Source: Candidatus Bathyarchaeia archaeon (GTDB lineage: Archaea; Thermoproteota; CALKCG01; B24). Taken from it: a DNA stretch of 64,000 bases. Both the position numbers and the translations under genes were made by a program. Below, in pieces: positions 1 through 62,497 of the stretch. The stretch spans positions 463,626 to 527,625 of the forward strand of contig JAVZJD010000002.1 of NCBI GenBank assembly GCA_038870975.1, written 5' to 3'. Position 1 is the stretch's first letter; each line of letters opens with the position of its first letter. The notes under the pieces were generated by a model, which saw only the letters and a program-made list of their open reading frames with translations, did no database searches and was not told the origin of the DNA.

Positions 1-420
1 TCATTTGACAAGGAAATATCTGATAGAATTGGGAAAATGATGTTTCTATTAAACGTTAGTCCTAAAGATACTTTGAGAGTTTTAGAGGACTATGGTAGTT
101 TGACAAGAGAACAACCTTTAATTTTAGGTATAGTTGATTATAAGGATTTCTTTAAACAAAATCAGGAATATGAGTCAGATGATGAAGAGATAGAACAATT
201 CTTTAATGAATATAGTTTTCCATTGACTATTATTGATGTGATAACGTTAATTAAAAATAATTGTCTTATTCTTAAACTTCATGACAGCAAATTATTCTGT
301 TTAAATTCTAAAAATGTTATAAGAAGATTTTCTGTTGGAGAATTAAGAGATGTGATAGCCTTTATCATACCCATGGAGTTCTATGATAATTCATACGGTT
401 TCATAGGTGCATTTTCATGA
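1..420 (+). CDS. 3' portion of an ORF cut by the window edge; unknown product, possibly a cas-operon protein
   Basis: Frame 1 is open from nt 1 to TGA at 418-420; ATGA start/stop overlap with the following HD-nuclease gene; no diagnostic motif seen. Confidence 0.3.
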   Translation, partial: SFDKEISDRIGKMMFLLNVSPKDTLRVLEDYGSLTREQPLILGIVDYKDFFKQNQEYESDDEEIEQFFNEYSFPLTIIDVITLIKNNCLILKLHDSKLFCLNSKNVIRRFSVGELRDVIAFIIPMEFYDNSYGFIGAFS

Positions 421-1133
421 AAATATATGCTTATAATGATGGAGATAGGGTTGAGACGTTAGAAAGACATATAACTGCTGGGTTACGGTATATGCAAGAA
501 ATATATTTGAAGAATATGTACCATAGACATATTTCCAAAAGGTTGAACGTAAGCGACGAAGATTCAATAAATTTATTAAAAGTTGCATACATGCTACATG
601 ACCTAGGTAAAGCATATGATCCATTTCAAACTAGAATAATAGAAGGGCATGGTGCTCCCGGGCATGAGGTTCTCTCATCATATGTAGCTGTAAAGCATTG
701 TAAAGTATTGGATGAAAATCTGACTCGCTCTGTTGCCTTATCCATACTTCTTCATCATCATGCAATGAGGACTCTAAGTGAAGCATTCATACAGTTCTGC
801 GAAGTAAAGCATTTTACGATTTCTATGGAAAAAGCGGAGTGGCTTAAGAGAAACGTATACGCTGATGTTTTAAATTTTCTACCTAATTCTTTAACATCGG
901 AACAGGTCGTGAATGTTCTTATGAGAGAATTGAATCGTCTTATTACGCCTAAATTATCAGAGGGGCTTGGGCAGATATATGCAACTGCATACCTTATACT
1001 ACACCCTTTAATGGTATGTGATAATCTCTCAGCATACACAGCGAAGTTTGGAGGGGATATTGTAAAAGTTGAAGACTTAGACCTCGGTAAGTTGAGGAAT
1101 TGGATCAGAGAGTTCTTATTAAGCGTTTTATAG
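417..1133 (+). CDS. cas3: HD-domain nuclease, Cas3 HD (Cas3'')-like
   Basis: 238 aa; LHDLGKAYDPFQ (HD-x-GK-x4-FQ signature of Cas3 HD), GHGAPGHE, LLHHHAM; immediately upstream of cas6. Confidence 0.6.
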   Translation: MKIYAYNDGDRVETLERHITAGLRYMQEIYLKNMYHRHISKRLNVSDEDSINLLKVAYMLHDLGKAYDPFQTRIIEGHGAPGHEVLSSYVAVKHCKVLDENLTRSVALSILLHHHAMRTLSEAFIQFCEVKHFTISMEKAEWLKRNVYADVLNFLPNSLTSEQVVNVLMRELNRLITPKLSEGLGQIYATAYLILHPLMVCDNLSAYTAKFGGDIVKVEDLDLGKLRNWIREFLLSVL

Positions 1134-1157
1134 TCTATATATTTGGTTGAATGCTTC

Positions 1158-2057
1158 ATGACTCAAATCGTAGTAAGGTTTTCTATAAATTTCACCTCAT
1201 TATCCAACATAATCATCCCTCCCTTCTCGTCTAAGGTTTCTAGAACTCTCTTCATAAGGATGTTCAATAGGGGTGTGGAAAAACCCGTGGAGTACTTTTC
1301 CAGTGAAAAGTTTGTCTTTAAGCCTTTGATTTTAACCCCGGTCTACTGGATGGATGGGAAGCGTTACCTGTTTAAAGTAGATGATTCTGAGGGTTTGTCT
1401 AAGCCTTTAATCCTCCGGGAGAATACTAAGTACTGCTTCTACGCCGTCTTGATCAGTAGAGGTGGCGGTGAATTGTCTTCGCTGATTCAAGACTTGGCTC
1501 CAAGCTTGAAGCTGGAGCTTTTCAACGGAGAGGTTCTAGTTGAGAATATAGGCGTAGAAGTCAAGTCTTTCGAGGGCTTCGGATTTAAAGACTCAGATGG
1601 ACTTATAAGAGTAGAGTTTAAAACGCCAGTCCTCATAAGCTTTCCAAAGTCATGGGTTAAACTCGAAAGGAAGACGCCTGCAAGGCATAGTCTATTCCCA
1701 ATACCGTCGTTTATGATACATGGTTTAGCTGAACACTGGAACAGCTACGCACCTGAGGAGTTGAAAATCCCAAACGTAGCTAAGCTGAGGATATACAGCA
1801 ACTACTCACTCGTTGAGCAAGACTACAGCGTTAAGCCTGTCACGGCGGTATACGATGAGAAGCGTAGACCTAGAGGATTCATAGGCTGGACCCTATACAA
1901 GCATAGGAGGCTGAATCGAAGCCTAGACGAAAGCCTACTAAAACTATTAGACTACGCAAACTACGTAGGCGTCGGAAGGTCTAGAAGCATAGGCTTCGGA
2001 GTCGTAGAAGTAAAACCATACAACTCGAAAACAAGCCAACCCGTAAAAAGACCGTGA
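1158..2057 (+). CDS. cas6: CRISPR RNA endoribonuclease Cas6
   Basis: C-terminal glycine-rich loop GVGRSRSIGFGVVEV and overall similarity to Pyrococcus-type Cas6; ORF track starts at TTG 1143, ATG at 1158 more likely. Confidence 0.75.
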   Translation: MTQIVVRFSINFTSLSNIIIPPFSSKVSRTLFIRMFNRGVEKPVEYFSSEKFVFKPLILTPVYWMDGKRYLFKVDDSEGLSKPLILRENTKYCFYAVLISRGGGELSSLIQDLAPSLKLELFNGEVLVENIGVEVKSFEGFGFKDSDGLIRVEFKTPVLISFPKSWVKLERKTPARHSLFPIPSFMIHGLAEHWNSYAPEELKIPNVAKLRIYSNYSLVEQDYSVKPVTAVYDEKRRPRGFIGWTLYKHRRLNRSLDESLLKLLDYANYVGVGRSRSIGFGVVEVKPYNSKTSQPVKRP

Positions 2058-15844: not shown

Positions 15845-15959
15845 GCGGGGGTTGCCGAGTCAGGACAAAGGCGCAGGACTTAAGATCTCAAAAGTAAAAG
15901 GGTCTAGATTGGAAATCCTGTGGCGTAGGCCTTCGTGGGTTCGAATCCCACCCCCCGCA
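15845..15959 (+). tRNA. tRNA-Leu (anticodon UAA) with ~30-nt intron in the anticodon loop
   Basis: Acceptor GCGGGGG/CCCCCGC plus discriminator A, T-arm GTGGGTTCGAATCCCAC, long variable arm, anticodon stem CAGGA/TCCTG separated by CTTAAG plus a ~30-nt insert. Confidence 0.7.
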
Positions 15960-21565: not shown

Positions 21566-22021
21566 TTGAGCCATCGCAAGTTTTTTAATTTAACGACTGC
21601 AGTAGTTTATACAGGTGATTATGTGCATAGTAAAGGTGATGAGAAGATAGAAAATAAGCGGAAGCATTTCCTATTTCCAGTATTCATGTTCATAGGTATG
21701 GGTGTAGGCTTCCTACTGATTGAAAGCATAGGCGGATTAGGATTCGTCTCAGCAATGTTTATCGGCATGGGCTTGGGTTTTCTTTTCGACAATCTTATAG
21801 TGATTGAAGAGAGGAAAATAAGCGTAGAAGTTCCTGTGAAGATAGGTGGCATAGCTACTTCTATAATAGGTGTCCTGTTCATAATCGGAGGAACTGTCGC
21901 TCTCATAGCACCCGAACTGCTTGAGAAACTTGCAACATACTTCATAGGATTAGGGTTCATAGTAGTTGGAATCTTCATACTAATCTATGGACTTGGTCTA
22001 GTTAAAAGCAAACCTAGCTAA
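21566..22021 (+). CDS. hypothetical membrane protein
   Basis: Glycine-rich hydrophobic segments (FIGMGVGFLLI, FIGMGLGFLF, IGLGFIVVGIFILIYGLGL); start codon uncertain. Confidence 0.35.
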   Translation: MSHRKFFNLTTAVVYTGDYVHSKGDEKIENKRKHFLFPVFMFIGMGVGFLLIESIGGLGFVSAMFIGMGLGFLFDNLIVIEERKISVEVPVKIGGIATSIIGVLFIIGGTVALIAPELLEKLATYFIGLGFIVVGIFILIYGLGLVKSKPS

Positions 22022-22495
22022 ACTATTAAAGCTACGATTAGTTAAGCTCTTTAATGGGATTTGGGTTCAAAGCGCTGATTCTAACATATAAATCATACGT
22101 AACCATTGTAACCCTTAATCCATTGTTTAATGGACCATTTAAGCTATTGGAGAAGCGCAGATAATTTAACTATTTTGAAGCTTTTTTGCTTATGGAGATT
22201 TCATAACCTATGCCTATTAGTTTAAGTGGAGCATTTACTGGAAGATTCCTAAATACCTAATTGCAGGTAAAAAGTAAGTTTGATCTAGTAGTAATTTCAA
22301 GGCTCAATCTTCCTCGAGAGGTCTTTCTCTAAATGTATAGAATTCCTCCAATGTTATTTCTATCGATGGAGACTCTTCTAAGACCCCCTCCAGACTTAGT
22401 ATCGGTTCAACCAGAAGCTTGCCATCCTCAATTCTATAGAAGAGCTCTGTCTACTATTTATATCTAGGTCGCAACTATTTTCATTCTGATGGTAG

Positions 22496-23620
22496 ATGAG
22501 CCATAGGGAGCGTTTCTTTAAAGCTTTAGAGTTAGAAGAGCCGGACTCAGTCCCTATAACTGATCTTGCTTTAGACCCCCCAATTGTAGACGCCGTTTTA
22601 AAACGTAAAATTTCCGGTACGGTTTTAACGATGGCTGGTGGAAGCGATAGCTGGGAGAATTCGCTAAACTATAGACTTGCACTTGTAGAAGCGTGTGAAA
22701 AACTAGATTTCGACGCTGTACCAGCTTTATCAGACTACTCTCTTACGACGAGAGATTACAGGCCTAAGTATTTGGACGGTAAGAAATACATTGACCACTG
22801 GGGTAGGATTATGCAGACGAGTATAGGGGCTAAAACAACGTATTTCATAGGAGGAGTCGTCAACACCCCCGAAGACTTGGAATTCTATGAACCCCCAGAC
22901 CCATTCCATCCCGATGTCGTTGAAATGGTTGATAGAATTATGAAGAGGGTTAAAAATAGGGACATAGCTGCAATAGCTCAATGCCACAGCGGATGGCATA
23001 TGGCTTTTCAAGTAAGAGGAGGAATAGATAAGATCTCGATCGACCTATACCGTAATCCTTACTTTGTGAGGAAGCTCATGGAAAAGATCGCAGGAGCCTG
23101 CCGTGGCTTCGCTAAATTGATGGCTGAGGCTGGAATAGATGCTCTTTTCGTAACAGACGACTATGCTGATAGTAGAGGTCCTCTAATAAATCCTAAATTG
23201 TTCAGAGAATATGAGCTACCCAATTTAAGAGAGGTTGTAAATATTGGGAAGCGTTATGGAATACCTGTGCTAAAGCACTCTGATGGGAACCTTTACCCGA
23301 TATTAGAAGATATCATCGATACAGGGATATGCGCTCTACATCCGATGGAGCCCGGCGTGATGGATTTGAAGTACATCAAGGAAAGATATGGCTCTAGAAT
23401 ATGTCTAATTGGAAACGTCGACTGTAAATACGTACTAACCTTTGGAAGTGAGGAAGACGTGAGAAGAGATGTTAGAAGGTGTATAGAGTCGGCGGCTCAA
23501 GGTGGAGGATTCATTCTAGCATCGAGCAATTCGCTACATGCCAATGTTAGAGTGGAAAACATCTACGTAATGATTGATGAAGCTAGAAGATATGGGAAAT
23601 ATCCTTTAAAATCAAAGTGA
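22496..23620 (+). CDS. uroporphyrinogen-decarboxylase (URO-D) family protein, MtaA/CmuA-like methyltransferase candidate
   Basis: 374 aa; N-terminal RERFFKALELEEPDSVPI and C-terminal ICLIGNVD...GGGFILASSNS pattern of the URO-D superfamily. Confidence 0.6.
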   Translation: MSHRERFFKALELEEPDSVPITDLALDPPIVDAVLKRKISGTVLTMAGGSDSWENSLNYRLALVEACEKLDFDAVPALSDYSLTTRDYRPKYLDGKKYIDHWGRIMQTSIGAKTTYFIGGVVNTPEDLEFYEPPDPFHPDVVEMVDRIMKRVKNRDIAAIAQCHSGWHMAFQVRGGIDKISIDLYRNPYFVRKLMEKIAGACRGFAKLMAEAGIDALFVTDDYADSRGPLINPKLFREYELPNLREVVNIGKRYGIPVLKHSDGNLYPILEDIIDTGICALHPMEPGVMDLKYIKERYGSRICLIGNVDCKYVLTFGSEEDVRRDVRRCIESAAQGGGFILASSNSLHANVRVENIYVMIDEARRYGKYPLKSK

Positions 23621-24755: not shown

Positions 24756-25181
24756 TTACATAGGAAAGAGTTTAGCTAAAGAGGACTCATTAGAATTAAA
24801 CCGCCAACCATTTAATTCTTCAAGAAGAGTTACTCTGGTTATATTTCCACAACTCCTTTTCATTTGACGGCCAGCTGTGACTAATTGCACGTTCAATTTC
24901 TTTGCGAGGTATACGTAAGTTGAATCGTACACAGTCAATTTTGCCGTAGCAACTATGCTTAAGATCTCAACTGAATCCTCCCATTCAATAGATTTAATAC
25001 TAAAGCCTATATATTTCAATGCTTCCAGCGCCTCCATACCATCGGAAAGCTTTAAAATACCTCTAGAAAACGCTCTCAGAATAACTTGTTCTTCCTAAGG
25101 GTCTCCTGGAATGATCCATTTAGCCACTACACTAGCATCTATAACTATTCTAAGCTTTTCTCTCTGTCCTCCCTTATCCAC
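24756..25181 (-). pseudogene. VapC-like PIN-domain gene interrupted by an in-frame TAG (25095-25097) and with Gly at the last catalytic Asp position
   Basis: Same frame reads ...KLRIVIDASVVAKWIIPGDP-TAG-EEQVILRAFSRG...MEALEAL...LTVYDSTYVYLAKKLNVQLVTAGRQ; only the post-TAG part appears in the ORF track. Confidence 0.5.
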
Positions 25182-25390
25182 TTTACAATCTCCTTCGTAG
25201 ATACTTCACCAGATCTCCTACGAATCTCATCCAATTTTTCAGCAACCTCCTTAGCAATCTCCTCTCTAATCTTCGCTTCAATGATCCGCCTAAGATATTC
25301 ACTCTAATTCACGTTAACTCTTTTTATTAATCTCCTTACCTCTTCAGGGACTTTGACAGATACATTAACAAGCCTACTCAAAAGGCTCAC
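25145..25390 (-). pseudogene. VapB-like antitoxin gene interrupted by an in-frame TAG (25304-25306)
   Basis: Frame reads (GTG)SLLSRLVNVSVKVPEEVRRLIKRVNVN-TAG-SEYLRRIIEAKIREEIAKEVAEKLDEIRRRSGEVSTKEIVKWIREDREKSLE; 3' end overlaps the vapC-like start. Confidence 0.4.
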
Positions 25391-25479
25391 CAAATGGTAA
25401 TCTCAATAGAGGTTACTATCTTAAAATTACTAAAGAGGGGGGAAAACGCAGAATTATATCAGTAGTTACAAATTTGACT

Positions 25480-32081: not shown

Positions 32082-32100
32082 CTTAATTTTTAAGCGGACC
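32076..32100. repeat. hairpin/inverted repeat overlapping the tRNA-Ala 3' end (GGTCCACTTAA-TTT-TTAAGCGGACC)
   Basis: Arms 32076-32086 and 32090-32100 are reverse complements (10/11). Confidence 0.6.
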
Positions 32101-32611
32101 CTTAAACAAAGGAATATCATTTATCCTTTAATTGATGAGCGTTGAGGGCCAAGTCCACTTATTTGCTTGAGGATGAGAGATGCCCAGTGCTAATTCGATA
32201 ATCTGGTGGCTAAGTCTTATTTGATGGCCACTGTTTCGCGAATTGAAAACAGCATGATGTGAGCTTACATTTAGAAATTTAAAGCGATTACAGAGATATT
32301 AAGAAACAGTAAATCACATTAAAAAAGGGATGATTGCTTTCCGTTATAAGTTAATGAGCCTTAAAGCCCATATCATGCTCATCGATCCAGAAATTGAAGA
32401 GTCGACTAGCCACTGGGTCATAGTATAGAATTACCCATCCAATACTGCGCATTGCTCACAACGTTACAAATTTCCGTATAGACTCTATCAGTACATTTCT
32501 CTACTTTCAGCAATGCTTTGAGTAGAACCTTCAAGTCGCTTGGATCTTTTGACAAGTAGTTACTTCAAAAGCGACGCCATCGTAAAGCTTTCTTAATTAT
32601 TTAATTGCATA

Positions 32612-32628
32612 CCGCCTGGTCCGCTTAA
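32612..32628. repeat. direct repeat of the tRNA-Ala 3' end (15/17 match to 32070-32086); arm 32618-32628 is a perfect inverted repeat of 32090-32100
   Basis: CCGCCTGGTCCGCTTAA versus CCGCCCGGTCCACTTAA. Confidence 0.6.
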
Positions 32629-32779
32629 GTTAAAAGTGGAGGATTTTAACTTCAATGTAAGGAGTAGAAAATAAAAATTTACATGGAAAATATTGGAGAA
32701 AATATTATAAAATTAGAATTTCAAAGTTTTTCTATTTTGAAACGACTTTCCCATTCGTGTTCTATATAAATATAATAGA

Positions 32780-33544
32780 ATGATTATAAGTACGATGGCA
32801 TACAAATCCGAGATATCAGTAATAGGGCAGATAGAGACCGGTATTGAAGGCTTAGACCTCCTCCTTAAAGGCGGATTCATAAAAGGGACTACAGCACTCC
32901 TCATAGGACCCGTGGGTACTTTAAAGCCACATATTGGTTTTCAATTTCTTCATACAGGGTTAAAATCCGGAGAAAGGTGCTTCTGTCTAAGTACTACTCA
33001 GGATCTAAAAATTAGAAGCATGCAGTTTAAGATAAACTACGGCTGGGATTTAGAAGGCTATGTGAAAAATGGGAAGCTGGACTTCCTGTACTTTTCGCCG
33101 ATTGCAGTTCAGAGTTCAACCTACAAGTTTGTAGTGAGCGAATCAGGCGGGAGTGATATAATCAGGGAGGTCCTCCATAGGATAACGGGAGACGTCACTA
33201 GAATATTGATTCACACTCTATCTCAACTGTTTAAAATAATAGGCGATGAAAAGTTAGTGCTAAGCCTAGTTTACAGGTTGAAAGAACTAGTTAGGAAGAA
33301 CAACGCAGTAGCAATTTTCACAATCGACAGTGGCATTCAAAACAGTAGTGTAGAAGAAGAAGTTAAGTCGATATGTGACTATGTTCTAGAAACTAGGGAA
33401 TATCAAAGTAGAGTAGAGATACGACTGTTAAAATCACTGACAAGACACGATTTAGAGTGGCGAAGAGTATACACCATGGAGGACGGAGTATACGTTCAGC
33501 AAAACTTGAAGACCCCAGTCCACTACATTAACAATTTAGACTGA
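32780..33544 (+). CDS. KaiC/RecA-superfamily ATPase-like protein with degenerate Walker A and B motifs
   Basis: 254 aa; GLDLLLKGGFIKGTTALLIGPVGTLKP (Walker A lacks canonical GK[ST]) and ILIHTLSQL at the Walker B position (no Asp/Glu). Confidence 0.5.
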   Translation: MIISTMAYKSEISVIGQIETGIEGLDLLLKGGFIKGTTALLIGPVGTLKPHIGFQFLHTGLKSGERCFCLSTTQDLKIRSMQFKINYGWDLEGYVKNGKLDFLYFSPIAVQSSTYKFVVSESGGSDIIREVLHRITGDVTRILIHTLSQLFKIIGDEKLVLSLVYRLKELVRKNNAVAIFTIDSGIQNSSVEEEVKSICDYVLETREYQSRVEIRLLKSLTRHDLEWRRVYTMEDGVYVQQNLKTPVHYINNLD

Positions 33545-33635
33545 TGTCTATCTCTATTTATTTTTGTCAAGGCTGAAAATGGCTGGATTAGACATGTTAA
33601 ACGATCTAACCTAATCGCTTTGCAAGGCAATTCTT

Positions 33636-33869
33636 TTATCCATTGTTTACAGCCAGCCATTGTATACGTGACCATTGTGAGAAGATATTTACTATAGTAC
33701 CAGCCCCTCGTAGAACATGCTTCCAAATTAAAACTGTAGGCAATTCAACGGGTTGTTCGTGGAGTTTAACTTTTCCAATTTCAAAAACACTATGTGCTTT
33801 TCCAAACTTAACAAGTAATTCCATAATCACCAAACTCTATTTAGGAAAATGCGAAAAACTTTTATCGGA
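33636..33869 (-). pseudogene. decayed duplicate of the promoter and first ~55 codons of the mtrH-like gene
   Basis: 33703-33869 aligns to 39324-39492 at about 80% identity; encodes ...FEIGKVKLHEQPVELPTVLI then frameshifts relative to MtrH. Confidence 0.55.
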
Positions 33870-34126
33870 AGATTTCCATTCCTCTTCATTTGAATTCTAG
33901 AAGACCACCTTGCTTCCTCCATCGGTATTAATACAGTCGAGTATAAGCTCTACAAAGCGTGCAATGCTTAGACTCCTGCTATCCGCCTCAGCCTTAAGCT
34001 TTTAAAATTTCACATTTTTCGATTTTCAACACGCTTTTTTTAAGCTTTTATCTTTTTCAGCTCCTTTACCGTTTGATTTATGCATTCTTCGAATCCCCTC
34101 CCAGCCAAGTGGAAGCCGCCTAAAAC

Positions 34127-34192
34127 CGCGTAAACTGCTTCTACGCGTGTAAGTTGCTACGCGTAAAGTATTGTGTTTACTACGCCACGTGG
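34127..34192. repeat. three degenerate tandem units with a CGCGT core
   Basis: CGCGTAAACTGCTTCTA / CGCGTGTAAGTTGCTA / CGCGTAAAGTATTGTGTTTACTA in otherwise AT-rich non-coding DNA. Confidence 0.4.
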
Positions 34193-34441
34193 ACTACTTC
34201 CTAACATTGAACAATATGCTGTGAGCCGCGCCTCTGTCAAAGACGCGAACAAGCATTGAGAAGCATGTTCAGCAATAGGGTAGTGGAAAGCCTTCTCTAC
34301 TCAATCTCTGAAGTCTTTAACCTTCTTACTTGAAGAAGTTGATAAGAGGTCTATGGAATTATCCATGAGACTGATTATCTCTACTCTTTCAGCCTCTCTA
34401 AGCTTTAAAAACTGATTATTTCCTTTCATAGAAGATATTCT

Positions 34442-37788: not shown

Positions 37789-37942
37789 GAAAACTTGAAA
37801 GACTTTACACTATATATCTGTTAATAGAGTAGAAGTGTCCACTCTTTTAATTTTCCTGTTTCTAATGTTGTTACACCGATAAGTACCTTATCTATGACGT
37901 CTGAGACAAGTACTGGCACTATTTCACTTCTCCCCTCCAGCT

Positions 37943-38171
37943 CTATTCATATTCTTGGTCTCTCAAGATTGATCTTCCAGCACCACTCTCCGCAATGGAT
38001 CTACTAGTCGCCTTAAGATCGAGAAACGTAGCTATCTTGCGTGGTATAATTGTAAGCGTAGCGCTAGTATCAACTAAGGCGTTAACCTCAACGAGTCTAA
38101 CGCAACTTTCATCAGCTATTTCAGCCGGGGCCCAACATGACCCAAAAATAATCCCTAAACTTAAACCTCAT
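37943..38171 (-). pseudogene. retropepsin-like aspartyl protease gene fragment, frameshifted
   Basis: Minus-strand frame encodes ...CVRLVEVNALVDTSATLTIIPRKIATFLDLK (DTG-like active-site block) without a start codon; an ATG at 38171 opens a 17-codon ORF in another frame. Confidence 0.35.
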
Positions 38172-38517
38172 GGTGTTTAAATTCTTCCTTAGGCAATTTT
38201 CAAGTTTCCAGGATTATTGTAAAGGTGTTCTCTGCTATTTTAGTCCCATTCCTCTTTGCCAATATAATGTATAAGGAATGTATATAGCTATGCTCCGTTT
38301 AGAGGATATTTTAAATGCTCAATCTATGGTTTCGCTGAACACTCTCATTTTCCTCCTTAACCCATTCTGGAACATTAACGCTCACCGCAGTCATTAACCA
38401 TCAACATGAGTTTCGATACAAATTCAATAAAACCCCTAGTGGTAAACCATCGTTTAAGACGCCTAAAAATATTGACTAGCTTCTCCCAGAAGCTAAGTAA
38501 AATTTCCCTATCCAAAT

Positions 38518-39435
38518 CTAAATCATCCTATACAACGGATGATTTTTAACTAGCGGCTTTATCCCTATGCTTCTTGCATGGTAAGCGACTATTGCATCGA
38601 TCATTGCACAGATGGGAAAGATATGCTTAGCTTTTGCAATAGAGCCGTAAATAATAAAGTTTGCTCCCATGGTTTGAGCGAGAGCTAAAGCCCCACCTCT
38701 ACACGCTATCTTCACGTTTTCTTCTAAACCTTTAGTTTTACTCCATTTCCCCACAGCGCCTATCGGCGCTGTTCCAGTCGGCATGCCAAATTCTTCCTTA
38801 GCTAGATAGATGCCTCGAGCCGCAAAGCCTATGCTTGGAACGTCTAAAACCAGCATGAAGATTAAGGGCTTCTCTATGCCAGCTTTTAAAGCTCTAGCAA
38901 CCAACCCCTCTTCTTCAGCAGATCCTTTAAGAATTTGGATCATACCAGCTGGATATGGATTTCTAGGATTAAAGGCCTGGATAATAGCGGCCTTTAGCTT
39001 TACCCCTCTAATGGCTTCGACCTCCTCTCTACTTAACGTATAGTTTATGGAGTTATAGACAGCTCTCTCCTGAAGCCCCACTTCTCTCACATAATTTGCC
39101 GCTCCAATTCTTATGGACGCGTTAGATCCATTTATTAGGAATGGGCTGTCAGTAACGTTTGATACGAATTCAATGTACTTTATGAGAGCTATAGAGTTTT
39201 CTCCAACCACGTCAAGCATACAAGGAACACCTGTTTTCTCAGACAGCTCTTCTTGAACAAGTATCAGTCTTTCAGCCTCTCTTCTATTGAAGAGCCCTGA
39301 AGACTTATCTTGAACTATCCTATGCCCCTCGTGGAATATACTTCCAATTAAAACTGTAGGCAATTCTCCAGGTTGCCCGCCGACTTTAACTTTTCCAATT
39401 TCAAAAATACTCTGCGTTTTTTCAAACTTAAACAA
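38518..39435 (-). CDS. mtrH: MtrH-family methyltransferase (tetrahydromethanopterin S-methyltransferase subunit H-like)
   Basis: 305 aa; N-terminus (TTG start) FKFEKTQSIFEIGKVKVGGQPGELPTVLIGSIF and overall colinearity with MtrH. Confidence 0.75.
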   Translation of the reverse strand: MFKFEKTQSIFEIGKVKVGGQPGELPTVLIGSIFHEGHRIVQDKSSGLFNRREAERLILVQEELSEKTGVPCMLDVVGENSIALIKYIEFVSNVTDSPFLINGSNASIRIGAANYVREVGLQERAVYNSINYTLSREEVEAIRGVKLKAAIIQAFNPRNPYPAGMIQILKGSAEEEGLVARALKAGIEKPLIFMLVLDVPSIGFAARGIYLAKEEFGMPTGTAPIGAVGKWSKTKGLEENVKIACRGGALALAQTMGANFIIYGSIAKAKHIFPICAMIDAIVAYHARSIGIKPLVKNHPLYRMI

Positions 39436-55427: not shown

Positions 55428-56504
55428 GTGGTTATTTTGACACCCCGTGAGAGAATTATTGCTACTTTACAACATAGAGAGGATAGATTGGATAGAATAC
55501 CCATACACGATAGTCCGTGGGCTGCCACAGTCAATAGGTGGATAAGAGAAGGCTTACCTGACGGTCAATCTCCTGACGATTATTTCGGCTACGAGATTGC
55601 CCAGTTTAGCGCAGATACATCTCCTATGTTCCCCGTTGAAGTAATACATGAAGACGCGGAGTACATAATTGAGAGGACTTCATATGGAGGAATACGTAGA
55701 AACCATAAGGATTACTCTACAACTCCAGAGATAATAGATTGGCCATGTAAAACCAAAGAAGATTGGGAGAAGATTAAGGTTAGACTTCAGCCTAGTGAGA
55801 GGAGGGTTGATTGGGTCTCATCATTGAACGCATACCATAGGGAGAGGAGCCGTGGAAAGTTTATAATGTATGGTGCAGCCGTAGGCTACGATAAGATTCA
55901 AAACTATGTAAAGTCTACAGAGCTCCTTAAAGCCGTTATAAGAGACCCTGAATGGGTTAAAGACATGTACTGGACAGACGCTAAACTCGCCATGGATATG
56001 TGTGACATCATGATCAAAGGGGGTTTTAAATTCGACGGAGCATTCTTATACTGTGACTTAGGTTATAGAAAAGGGCTATTCTTCTCACCGAGACACTATG
56101 AGGAACAATTGCATCCAGTGTTCAAGGAATTGTGCAGGTTTTTCAAGTCTAGAGGAATGTACGTGTTTCTCCACTGTTGCGGCAATGTGAAAGACTTAAT
56201 ACCATACTTCATAGAGGAGGGGATAGACGTCCTACAGCCTCTAGAAGTTAAAGCAGGTATGGATCTCATAGAACTTAAGGAAAAATATGGAGATAAGATG
56301 ACTTTCATGGGCGGTATAGACGTTAGACTCATGGCTTTAGACGACCCTAAACCCATAGAGGAGGAGATTAAGAGGAAGATTACCTTTGCGAAGCAGGGTG
56401 GAGGTTACATATATCACTCAGACCACTCTATTCCAAAGAATGTAAGTTTTCAAAACTATAAACGCGTAATAGAACTCGTCCACAAATACGGTAGATACCG
56501 TTAG
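55428..56504 (+). CDS. uroporphyrinogen-decarboxylase (URO-D) family protein, MtaA-like methyltransferase candidate
   Basis: 358 aa; C-terminal FLHCCGNVKDL...MGGIDV...GGGYIYHSDHSIP pattern. Confidence 0.6.
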   Translation: MVILTPRERIIATLQHREDRLDRIPIHDSPWAATVNRWIREGLPDGQSPDDYFGYEIAQFSADTSPMFPVEVIHEDAEYIIERTSYGGIRRNHKDYSTTPEIIDWPCKTKEDWEKIKVRLQPSERRVDWVSSLNAYHRERSRGKFIMYGAAVGYDKIQNYVKSTELLKAVIRDPEWVKDMYWTDAKLAMDMCDIMIKGGFKFDGAFLYCDLGYRKGLFFSPRHYEEQLHPVFKELCRFFKSRGMYVFLHCCGNVKDLIPYFIEEGIDVLQPLEVKAGMDLIELKEKYGDKMTFMGGIDVRLMALDDPKPIEEEIKRKITFAKQGGGYIYHSDHSIPKNVSFQNYKRVIELVHKYGRYR

Positions 56505-61987: not shown

Positions 61988-62497
61988 CTAATGAGTTATT
62001 CCTACTCTAGTGTAGATTTCTCTTGGAGCCTTAACTTCGACAACCATATTCACTATATCGGCTCTATTTATAAGCTCGGGTGGACAGTACCTGCCAGTTA
62101 ATACAACGTCTGTTTCATCTGGAACCTCGTTTAAAAGCTCGAGAATACTCTTGGTATCTAAAAGTCCTATGAAGGCGGCAAGACAAATCTCATCTAAAAC
62201 TAGTAGATGGGGTTTACTCTTTAAGACCTCTCTAGCCTTCTCAAGACCTTTTCTCGCTAGGATTTTATCTTCTTCAGATGGGTTTCGTAAGTCCACCCAT
62301 TCTCTCCTTCCAAACTGGTATATTTCATAGTAGGGTTTAAGCAACTCCATAACCTTATATTCACCTATATCTTTACGACCCTTCATAAACTGAATTATCA
62401 CAGCTCTTAAGCCATGGCCTATGCATCTTAAAGCCAAGCCTAAAGCGTTAGTCGTCTTTCCAGCGCCAGTCCCATAGTAGAGGAAAATCTTACCCAT
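61988..62497 (-). CDS. cobA: ATP:cob(I)alamin (corrinoid) adenosyltransferase, CobA/CobO family
   Basis: 169 aa; P-loop YYGTGAGKTTNALG. Confidence 0.75.
   Translation of the reverse strand: MGKIFLYYGTGAGKTTNALGLALRCIGHGLRAVIIQFMKGRKDIGEYKVMELLKPYYEIYQFGRREWVDLRNPSEEDKILARKGLEKAREVLKSKPHLLVLDEICLAAFIGLLDTKSILELLNEVPDETDVVLTGRYCPPELINRADIVNMVVEVKAPREIYTRVGITH

Follow-up and report, generated by a model that had tools for sequence, protein, structure and literature searches.

Architecture and neighbourhood of the locus

The 64-kb stretch of bathyarchaeial DNA that was analysed here (hereafter the window) carries two overlapping genes on the minus strand, flanked by a gene for a GNAT acetyltransferase and by nikR, namely a pseudogene for a VapB antitoxin (25393..25145) and a pseudogene for the PIN-domain toxin VapC (25181..24756). 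The vapB frame starts at a TTG (25393) or a GTG (25390) and comprises 82 codons followed by its own TAG terminator at 25147-25145; it translates as MVSLLSRLVNVSVKVPEEVRRLIKRVNVN up to an internal stop, continues with SEYLRRIIEAKIREE and ends in EDREKSLE. The vapC frame starts with GTG, and its conceptual read-through product, which at 141 aa is shorter than the 155 aa of the intact orthologues, reads VDKGGQREKLRIVIDASVVAKWIIPGDP before the internal stop, resumes with EEQVILRAF, passes through QLVTAGRQ and ends in ELNGWRFNSNESSLAKLFPM. The upstream position of vapB, the common strand and the overlap of 37 nt constitute the architecture of a type II toxin-antitoxin (TA) operon, and the same overlapping arrangement is found in the intact copies of two related genomes (L002 and L003). 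The site itself is conserved: in every locus that was fetched (L001-L015) the gene order is GH123 - hypothetical - GNAT - vapB - vapC - nikR - HTH - UroD.

The initial annotation of this DNA had placed one in-frame TAG in each gene, at 25304-25306 in vapB and at 25095-25097 in the PIN gene, with coherent family-like sequence around both. The two codons are indeed found there on the minus strand, and the flanks of each are homologous to full-length VapB or VapC proteins of Bathyarchaeia; because this homology extends to both sides of each TAG, the two frames represent real genes and not chance ORFs.

The antitoxin gene

The TAG in vapB occupies codon 30 (25304..25306, minus strand) and aligns with a tryptophan, encoded by TGG, in the motif NVNWSEY. 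The mutation is private to the window lineage, in which we include the loci L014 and L015 that carry it as well. A protein search with the read-through frame recovered 111 proteins, which range from 45 to 111 aa with most at 76-82 aa and include one that is named 'VapB-type antitoxin'; Trp30 is at least 90% conserved in the 110 homologues used to assess it (72-111 aa, mostly 76-82 aa). The intact allele of a close relative (P0030) matches the NCBIfam model of the Sulfolobales-type antitoxin (NF050799, TA_anti_VapB_Sulfo) with an E-value of 3.8e-15 over model positions 2-69 of 69, at a score (56.2 bits) just under the equivalog cutoff of 60 bits, and a second homologue (P0120) reaches 59.2 bits. 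Pfam yields only sub-threshold matches for VapB, that is to RHH, CcdA and DUF6290. The uninterrupted ORF of some 76-82 codons of a VapB is lacking in the window, where the frame is cut by the TAG at codon 30.

Directly abutting the start of vapB lies an imperfect palindrome (25394..25419, minus strand), ATAGTAACCTC-TATT-GAGATTACCAT, which consists of an 11-nt inverted repeat around a 4-nt spacer. The repeat is perfect in the intact locus L002 (3967-3992: ATAGTAGTCTC tatt GAGACTACTAT), and in the window its arms still match at 9 of 11 positions, with one window-private substitution in the left arm (25413). An A/T-rich, TATA-like stretch (TTTTAAGATA) precedes the vapB start by about 25 nt. It is plausible that the palindrome marks the former operator/promoter region to which VapB would have bound.

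The toxin gene

When the PIN frame was read through and used as a protein query, 28 proteins were recovered, mostly of 152-155 aa, and the matches that carry a name in their source are all labelled 'type II toxin-antitoxin system VapC family toxin' and come from Candidatus Bathyarchaeia. The intact orthologues P0001 and P0002 match the Pfam PIN domain (PF01850) with 44.2 and 43.5 bits over positions 1-116 of 120. The sequence of P0001 matches the PIN proteins PAE0151 and PAE2754, and its AlphaFold model (pLDDT 91.2) has a PIN fold that resembles PAE0151, PAE2754, VapC15 of M. tuberculosis, FitB and other VapC structures. Three of the acidic active-site residues of the orthologues (Asp15, Glu56 and Asp113) are invariant among 24 homologues and the fourth, Asp131, is at least 90% conserved.

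The window copy carries four lesions: a nonsense codon, a large deletion, a frameshift near the 3' end and the substitution of an active-site residue. The first is the TAG at codon 29 (25095..25097, minus strand), which aligns with a tryptophan (TGG) in the motif PGEPWEE that is invariant in the 24 full-length homologues, and which is common to the whole clade of close relatives of the window. Alignment with intact orthologues reveals that directly after this TAG 27 codons are missing, by an in-frame deletion of 81 bp whose junction lies at 25084..25088 (minus strand). The DNA-level junction is clean and reads GAAGAACA|AGTTATT, its exact position being ambiguous by about 2 nt of microhomology; the residues that fall in the 27-residue alignment gap are AKLLRNMVVSGDVEAYVPTLLLYEVTS in P0001. 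Projected on the orthologue model, the deleted residues 33-59 comprise most of the helix 30-42, the entire beta-strand 45-50 and the start of the helix 52-66, and they include the catalytic Glu56. The third lesion, seen in the DNA alignment with L002-L006, is a 1-nt deletion (GGG to GG) at codon 125 (24807..24809, minus strand), by which the ancestral TAA is bypassed: where the intact proteins end in ELNGLSI, the window frame runs into a non-homologous tail of 16 codons with a new TAA stop (24756..24806, minus strand) and ends in ELNGWRFNSNESSLAKLFPM. The fourth lesion concerns codon 104 (24870..24872, minus strand), which is GGC (Gly) in place of GAC (Asp) and is private to the window lineage; the initial annotation had already noticed VTAG in place of VTAD, and the position is indeed that of the conserved fourth acidic residue.

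The gene has thus lost two of the four acidic residues, Glu56 by deletion and the fourth Asp by substitution, and it lacks an uninterrupted ORF for a complete alpha/beta/alpha PIN fold (amber codon at position 29, loss of the strand 45-50 with parts of two helices, 3' frameshift). The read-through product scores 21.4 bits against PF01850, which is below the cutoff of 23.6 bits, and the match is confined to profile positions 64-116, in the C-terminal half of the product. The first description of the pair as free of frameshifts and, apart from the TAGs, intact does not hold for the PIN gene, which lacks 81 bp (27 codons, among them those of the catalytic Glu and of a core beta-strand) and whose C-terminus has been replaced through the loss of 1 nt at codon 125; the description underestimated the damage to the toxin gene.

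Three states of the locus in related genomes

Intact copies are present in L002 (GCA_038851915.1) and L003 (ERZ6864471), with a vapB of 78-82 aa and a vapC of 155 aa. Both loci have TGG at the two sites that are TAG in the window, they have no deletion, they retain the Asp of the xTAD motif and they use the ancestral stop. The dN/dS between these two copies amounts to 0.08 for vapB and 0.18 for vapC, so that the working module is under purifying selection.

The second state is that of the window clade, which comprises eight further assemblies from NCBI, JGI and Logan samples (L001 and L007-L013) that are at least 98.5% identical over a vapBC segment of 691 bp. All eight carry the vapC TAG together with the 81-bp deletion, and all seven that extend to the 3' end also have the 1-nt deletion. 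The remaining damage is more recent: vapB codon 30 is TGG in all eight, and vapC codon 104 is GAC (Asp) in each of the seven that cover it (L001, L007-L012; the sequence of L013 stops short of it). Private to the window are M23I and the loss of Trp30 to a stop in vapB, A77V and D104G in vapC, and one upstream base.

The third state was encountered in three Logan runs (L004-L006), where the codon-29 site of vapC is TGG, as it is in L002 and L003, and where a segment of 272 bp, with vapB and some 17 codons from the start of vapC, among them the codon for the first catalytic Asp, is inverted relative to the window, L002 and L003. Positions 4728-4999 of L004 correspond in opposite orientation to 25137-25409 of the window with 91.6% identity, and the inverted segment recurs at L005:682-953 and L006:246-517. 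On its left side the inversion breaks in the middle of the operator-like palindrome that precedes vapB, and the inverted vapB has moreover lost 1 nt, which shortens it to 68 aa. A programmed inversion switch was considered and dismissed: only short and imperfect inverted repeats flank the segment, vapB is also frameshifted and the orientation is the same in all three samples. We treat the inversion as a fixed rearrangement and not a switch.

The alignment with orthologues for which the initial annotation had called thus places Trp (TGG) at both TAG positions. The finding of unrelated lesions in orthologues, which it had named as an argument for random decay and against recoding, is likewise borne out, by the inversion and the vapB frameshift in L004-L006 next to the intact copies in L002 and L003.

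A further observation concerns the neighbouring genes of L002 (GCA_038851915.1), where within positions 99-2620 the GH123 gene is split into ORFs of 205 and 252 aa and the gene for a hypothetical protein of 338 aa into ORFs of 205 and 130 aa; these would be either pseudogenes or assembly errors.

Recurrence of the lesions across assemblies

The source of the window is evidently a metagenome-assembled genome (MAG), in view of its 100% match to GCA_038884135.1, and the vapB TAG differs from the relatives by a single base, so that one might suspect base-call or consensus errors in genes that are in reality intact. Against this, the three lesions that the clade shares in vapC, namely the TAG, the deletion of 81 bp and the frameshift, are seen again in at least ten assemblies, which stem from different samples and from NCBI, JGI and Logan. 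The private allele, with the TAG in vapB and with Gly104, exists in identical form in two other assemblies (L014, L015): the NCBI MAG contig JAVZKS010000004.1 (GCA_038884135.1) and a Logan contig from SRR27170999 that was assembled independently both match the window at 100% over 4,282 bp, a stretch that contains the two TAGs. An exact 93-aa ORF with the private changes is found on six contigs. A sequencing or assembly artefact is, judged by this recurrence, unlikely, and indeed very much so.

Substitution patterns

The window and L001 have 11 kb in common, at 99.4% identity, and all coding differences between them are transitions. For vapBC there are 8 nonsynonymous differences against 1 synonymous difference, at a density of 12-14 differences per kb, whereas the eight clearly real flanking genes show 10 against 22 and about 3.8 per kb (Fisher p = 0.005 for the nonsynonymous/synonymous contrast); intergenic DNA differs at about 10 positions per kb. 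Across the whole window clade vapBC has 9 nonsynonymous sites and 1 synonymous site, and the three variable sites in vapB are all nonsynonymous. On these counts the vapBC copy of the window clade seems now to evolve like non-coding DNA.

The pattern bears on the possibility that selection still maintains a part of the locus, be it the residual ORF of 93 aa that represents the C-terminal half of the dead PIN gene (24756..25037, minus strand), the N-terminal VapB fragment of 29 aa or the orphan vapB of the relatives, with possible roles as an orphan antitoxin, an anti-addiction factor or a regulator. The 93-aa ORF is annotated by gene callers, and vapB has remained uninterrupted in all eight close relatives even though their toxin is dead. 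Yet nine of the ten vapBC substitutions in the clade are nonsynonymous and their density resembles that of intergenic DNA, the 93-aa ORF is devoid of two of the four acidic residues and of half of the fold, and the window lineage has tolerated a nonsense mutation in vapB. We consider a residual or new function improbable, to a high degree. The vapB of the relatives could have stayed intact after the death of the toxin either because too little time has passed or because some selection remains, and three variable sites are too few to choose between the two.

Another locally variable region between the window and L001 is found at 21566-22474; the average over the 11 kb is about 5.5 differences per kb. 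Within this region, an ORF of 151 aa (21566-22021) differs at 13 positions per kb (3 synonymous and 3 nonsynonymous differences), and there are 8 differences in the intergenic part (22024-22474); the ORF is overlapped by an antisense ORF (21619-21978) and may not be a real gene.

TAG as a stop codon

Two in-frame TAGs with homologous sequence on each side raise the possibility of programmed recoding, in which the codons would be read as pyrrolysine (Pyl), as Trp by way of a suppressor tRNA, or by regulated readthrough, and both proteins would be made at full length. Some Bathyarchaeia carry PylSBCD, and Sifarchaeia that decode Pyl keep a high usage of UAG as a stop (PMC9723677); methyl-transfer and corrinoid genes are moreover present in the window (see below). 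The comparative data point in the other direction. A conserved in-frame TAG at the same site in orthologues is not observed, as the antitoxin site is TGG in the eight relatives that are at least 98.5% identical, in all intact orthologues and in every sequence examined apart from the window allele itself (with which L014 and L015 are identical). The vapC TAG never occurs without the 81-bp deletion and is accompanied by the frameshift as well, so that a readthrough product would still be dead, and the substitutions in vapBC are of a neutral-like kind. Furthermore, vapB uses TAG as its own terminator, and readthrough there would continue through three more TAGs.

The use of TAG elsewhere in the window is that of an ordinary stop. 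The 57 long non-overlapping ORFs end in TAG (19), TAA (26) or TGA (12), so that TAG terminates 33% of them, including SUI1, S15, TFB, the Mrp/ParA ATPase, UbiA, RNR, nikR and vapB. This agrees with the earlier statement that SUI1, S15 and RNR end in TAG, which was seen in all three. In SUI1, S15, TFB and ParA, whose domains extend to the end of the protein, only a few residues lie between the last matched position and the TAG, and there is no further gene here that would require a TAG within its frame. A sense reading of TAG throughout the window was also tried, by allowing only TAA and TGA as stops; this merges just two pairs, Cas3-HD with Cas6 and RNR with CobA, which according to Pfam are separate genes. 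ARAGORN and Rfam reveal no tRNA(CUA) in the 64-kb window, where the only tRNAs are tRNA-Ala(CGC) and an intron-containing tRNA-Leu(UAA), and pyl genes were not found in these 64 kb. Because Pyl machinery can coexist with a high usage of UAG as a stop, as in Sifarchaeia (PMC9723677), the figure of 33% was given less weight as an argument against Pyl. The site-specific comparative evidence is independent of the argument from stop usage.

Judged by the alignments, and by the yardstick of the initial annotation itself, recoding is rejected as an explanation that is exceedingly improbable. It is hardly more to be expected that an amber-suppressing system partly reads through the recent TAG in vapB, which might provide a trickle of orphan VapB that cross-neutralises a paralogous VapC or acts as a regulator.

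Other features of the window

Several further features were noted in the course of the analysis. The tRNA-Leu(UAA) is a class II tRNA at 15845-15959 (plus strand) that was missed by ARAGORN and found with Rfam at 44.6 bits; its anticodon loop is CUUAAGA, and an intron of about 30 nt follows position 37. The methyl-transfer and corrinoid genes lie at 38518-39435 (minus), 22496-23620 (plus), 55428-56504 (plus) and 61988-62497 (minus), and encode an MtrH-family methyltransferase, two UroD/MtaA-like proteins and a corrinoid adenosyltransferase; none of them has an in-frame TAG. At 417-2057 (plus strand) a Cas3-HD-like gene (417-1133) and cas6 (1143-2057) are adjacent in the same frame, with a TAG and three codons between them, and Tandem Repeats Finder detected no CRISPR array in the window.

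An apparent second pseudogene, the remnant of a retropepsin-like aspartyl protease (ALVDTSATLTIIP, with DTSA for DTGA), is situated at ~37830-38190 (minus strand). A change of frame is needed to translate it and stops lie inside it, and the repaired translation scores just below the cutoffs of PF13975 and PF13650 (E-value 1e-5). Two segments of 0.7-0.9 kb (32083-32780 and 33545-34441) contain no ORF of at least 90 aa, no Rfam family and no Pfam match in the frames tried; a remnant resembling a metallo-beta-lactamase that had been guessed in the second segment (33545-34441) was dropped for want of a Pfam match.

Discussion

Taken together, we put the probability at roughly 95% that the locus represents what erosion has left of a chromosomal type II VapBC operon, in which both TAGs are plain nonsense mutations and TAG is read as a stop. 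This is the reading that the initial annotation had preferred, namely a decaying and inactivated TA module, and the additional lesions, the Trp codons at both sites and the independent decay in a related lineage lend it support.

Comparison of the lineages shows the order of events. The original module consisted of a ribbon-helix-helix-like VapB and a PIN-domain RNase VapC, encoded by overlapping genes in a bathyarchaeial host, and in the ancestor it was intact and subject to purifying selection, which is still the case in L002 and L003. The toxin gene was then destroyed in the stem of the window clade, when Trp29 became an amber codon, 81 bp were deleted and the loss of 1 nt shifted the frame near the 3' end. 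Without an active toxin the antitoxin would have become dispensable, and in the window lineage vapB then acquired the amber codon at Trp30 and M23I while the dead vapC acquired A77V and the change of Asp104 to Gly. Because eight relatives with a dead toxin keep TGG in vapB and seven keep Asp104, the toxin died first and the nonsense mutation in the antitoxin and D104G came later. This order is the one that is compatible with survival, because loss of the antitoxin in the presence of an active toxin would be harmful. Both TAGs derive from TGG by a single G to A transition. TGG is one of only two codons that one transition turns into TAG, and since it is among so few sources, the occurrence of two TAGs at Trp sites can be viewed as the outcome of mutation alone. 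A functional product of vapB or vapC would not be expected in the window, and the module should now be inert.

The resemblance to the VapBC systems of archaea, represented by PAE0151 (PDB 2FE1) and PAE2754 (PDB 1V8P) of Pyrobaculum aerophilum, extends to the gene order and overlap (37 nt in the window), to the palindrome upstream of vapB and, for the intact orthologues, to the predicted PIN fold with its four acidic residues; for the Sulfolobales-type VapB (NF050799) the full-length match of the relative's protein stays just under the cutoff (56.2 against 60 bits). The window copy differs from such systems in its two nonsense codons, the 81-bp deletion, the frameshift, the Asp to Gly change and the sub-cutoff Pfam score, and would not be a working member of the family. 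The decay of TA systems by nonsense mutations and deletions has been reviewed (PMC7167474), and a two-step course in which the toxin is lost first has been described as the norm, with 41 of 50 TA systems decayed in Photorhabdus (PMC13617665). The erosion of ccdO157 in E. coli (Mine et al. 2009, as cited in PMC7167474) and that of the Photorhabdus systems share with our case, as far as these accounts describe them, the decay by nonsense mutation, truncation and small deletion at a conserved chromosomal site, the loss of the toxin before the antitoxin and the independent lesions in related lineages. The present case differs from them in that the organism is an uncultured archaeon, the stages were reconstructed from metagenome assemblies only and one lineage decayed by way of a small inversion. 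The likeness to the recoding of UAG as pyrrolysine in Methanosarcinales, Methanomassiliicoccales and Sifarchaeia is superficial and limited to an in-frame TAG in a recognisable gene, whereas in the window the TAG sites are TGG in relatives, are not conserved and occur together with further inactivating lesions, and TAG often serves as a terminator.

The feature is real but ordinary, a textbook case of two-step toxin-antitoxin erosion, and its significance beyond annotation is slight. For annotation, the ORF fragments of both genes are to be labelled as vapB and vapC pseudogenes and not as hypothetical proteins or recoding candidates, and paired in-frame TAGs at Trp codons are to be seen as a product of G to A transitions and not as evidence of an altered genetic code. 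As regards the biology of these modules, the locus provides a natural series within one archaeal lineage, from an intact module via a dead toxin with an intact antitoxin to the loss of both, with an independent inversion besides. At this one syntenic site three independent outcomes are seen, and the toxin-first model of TA erosion is thereby carried over from bacteria to uncultured Bathyarchaeia.
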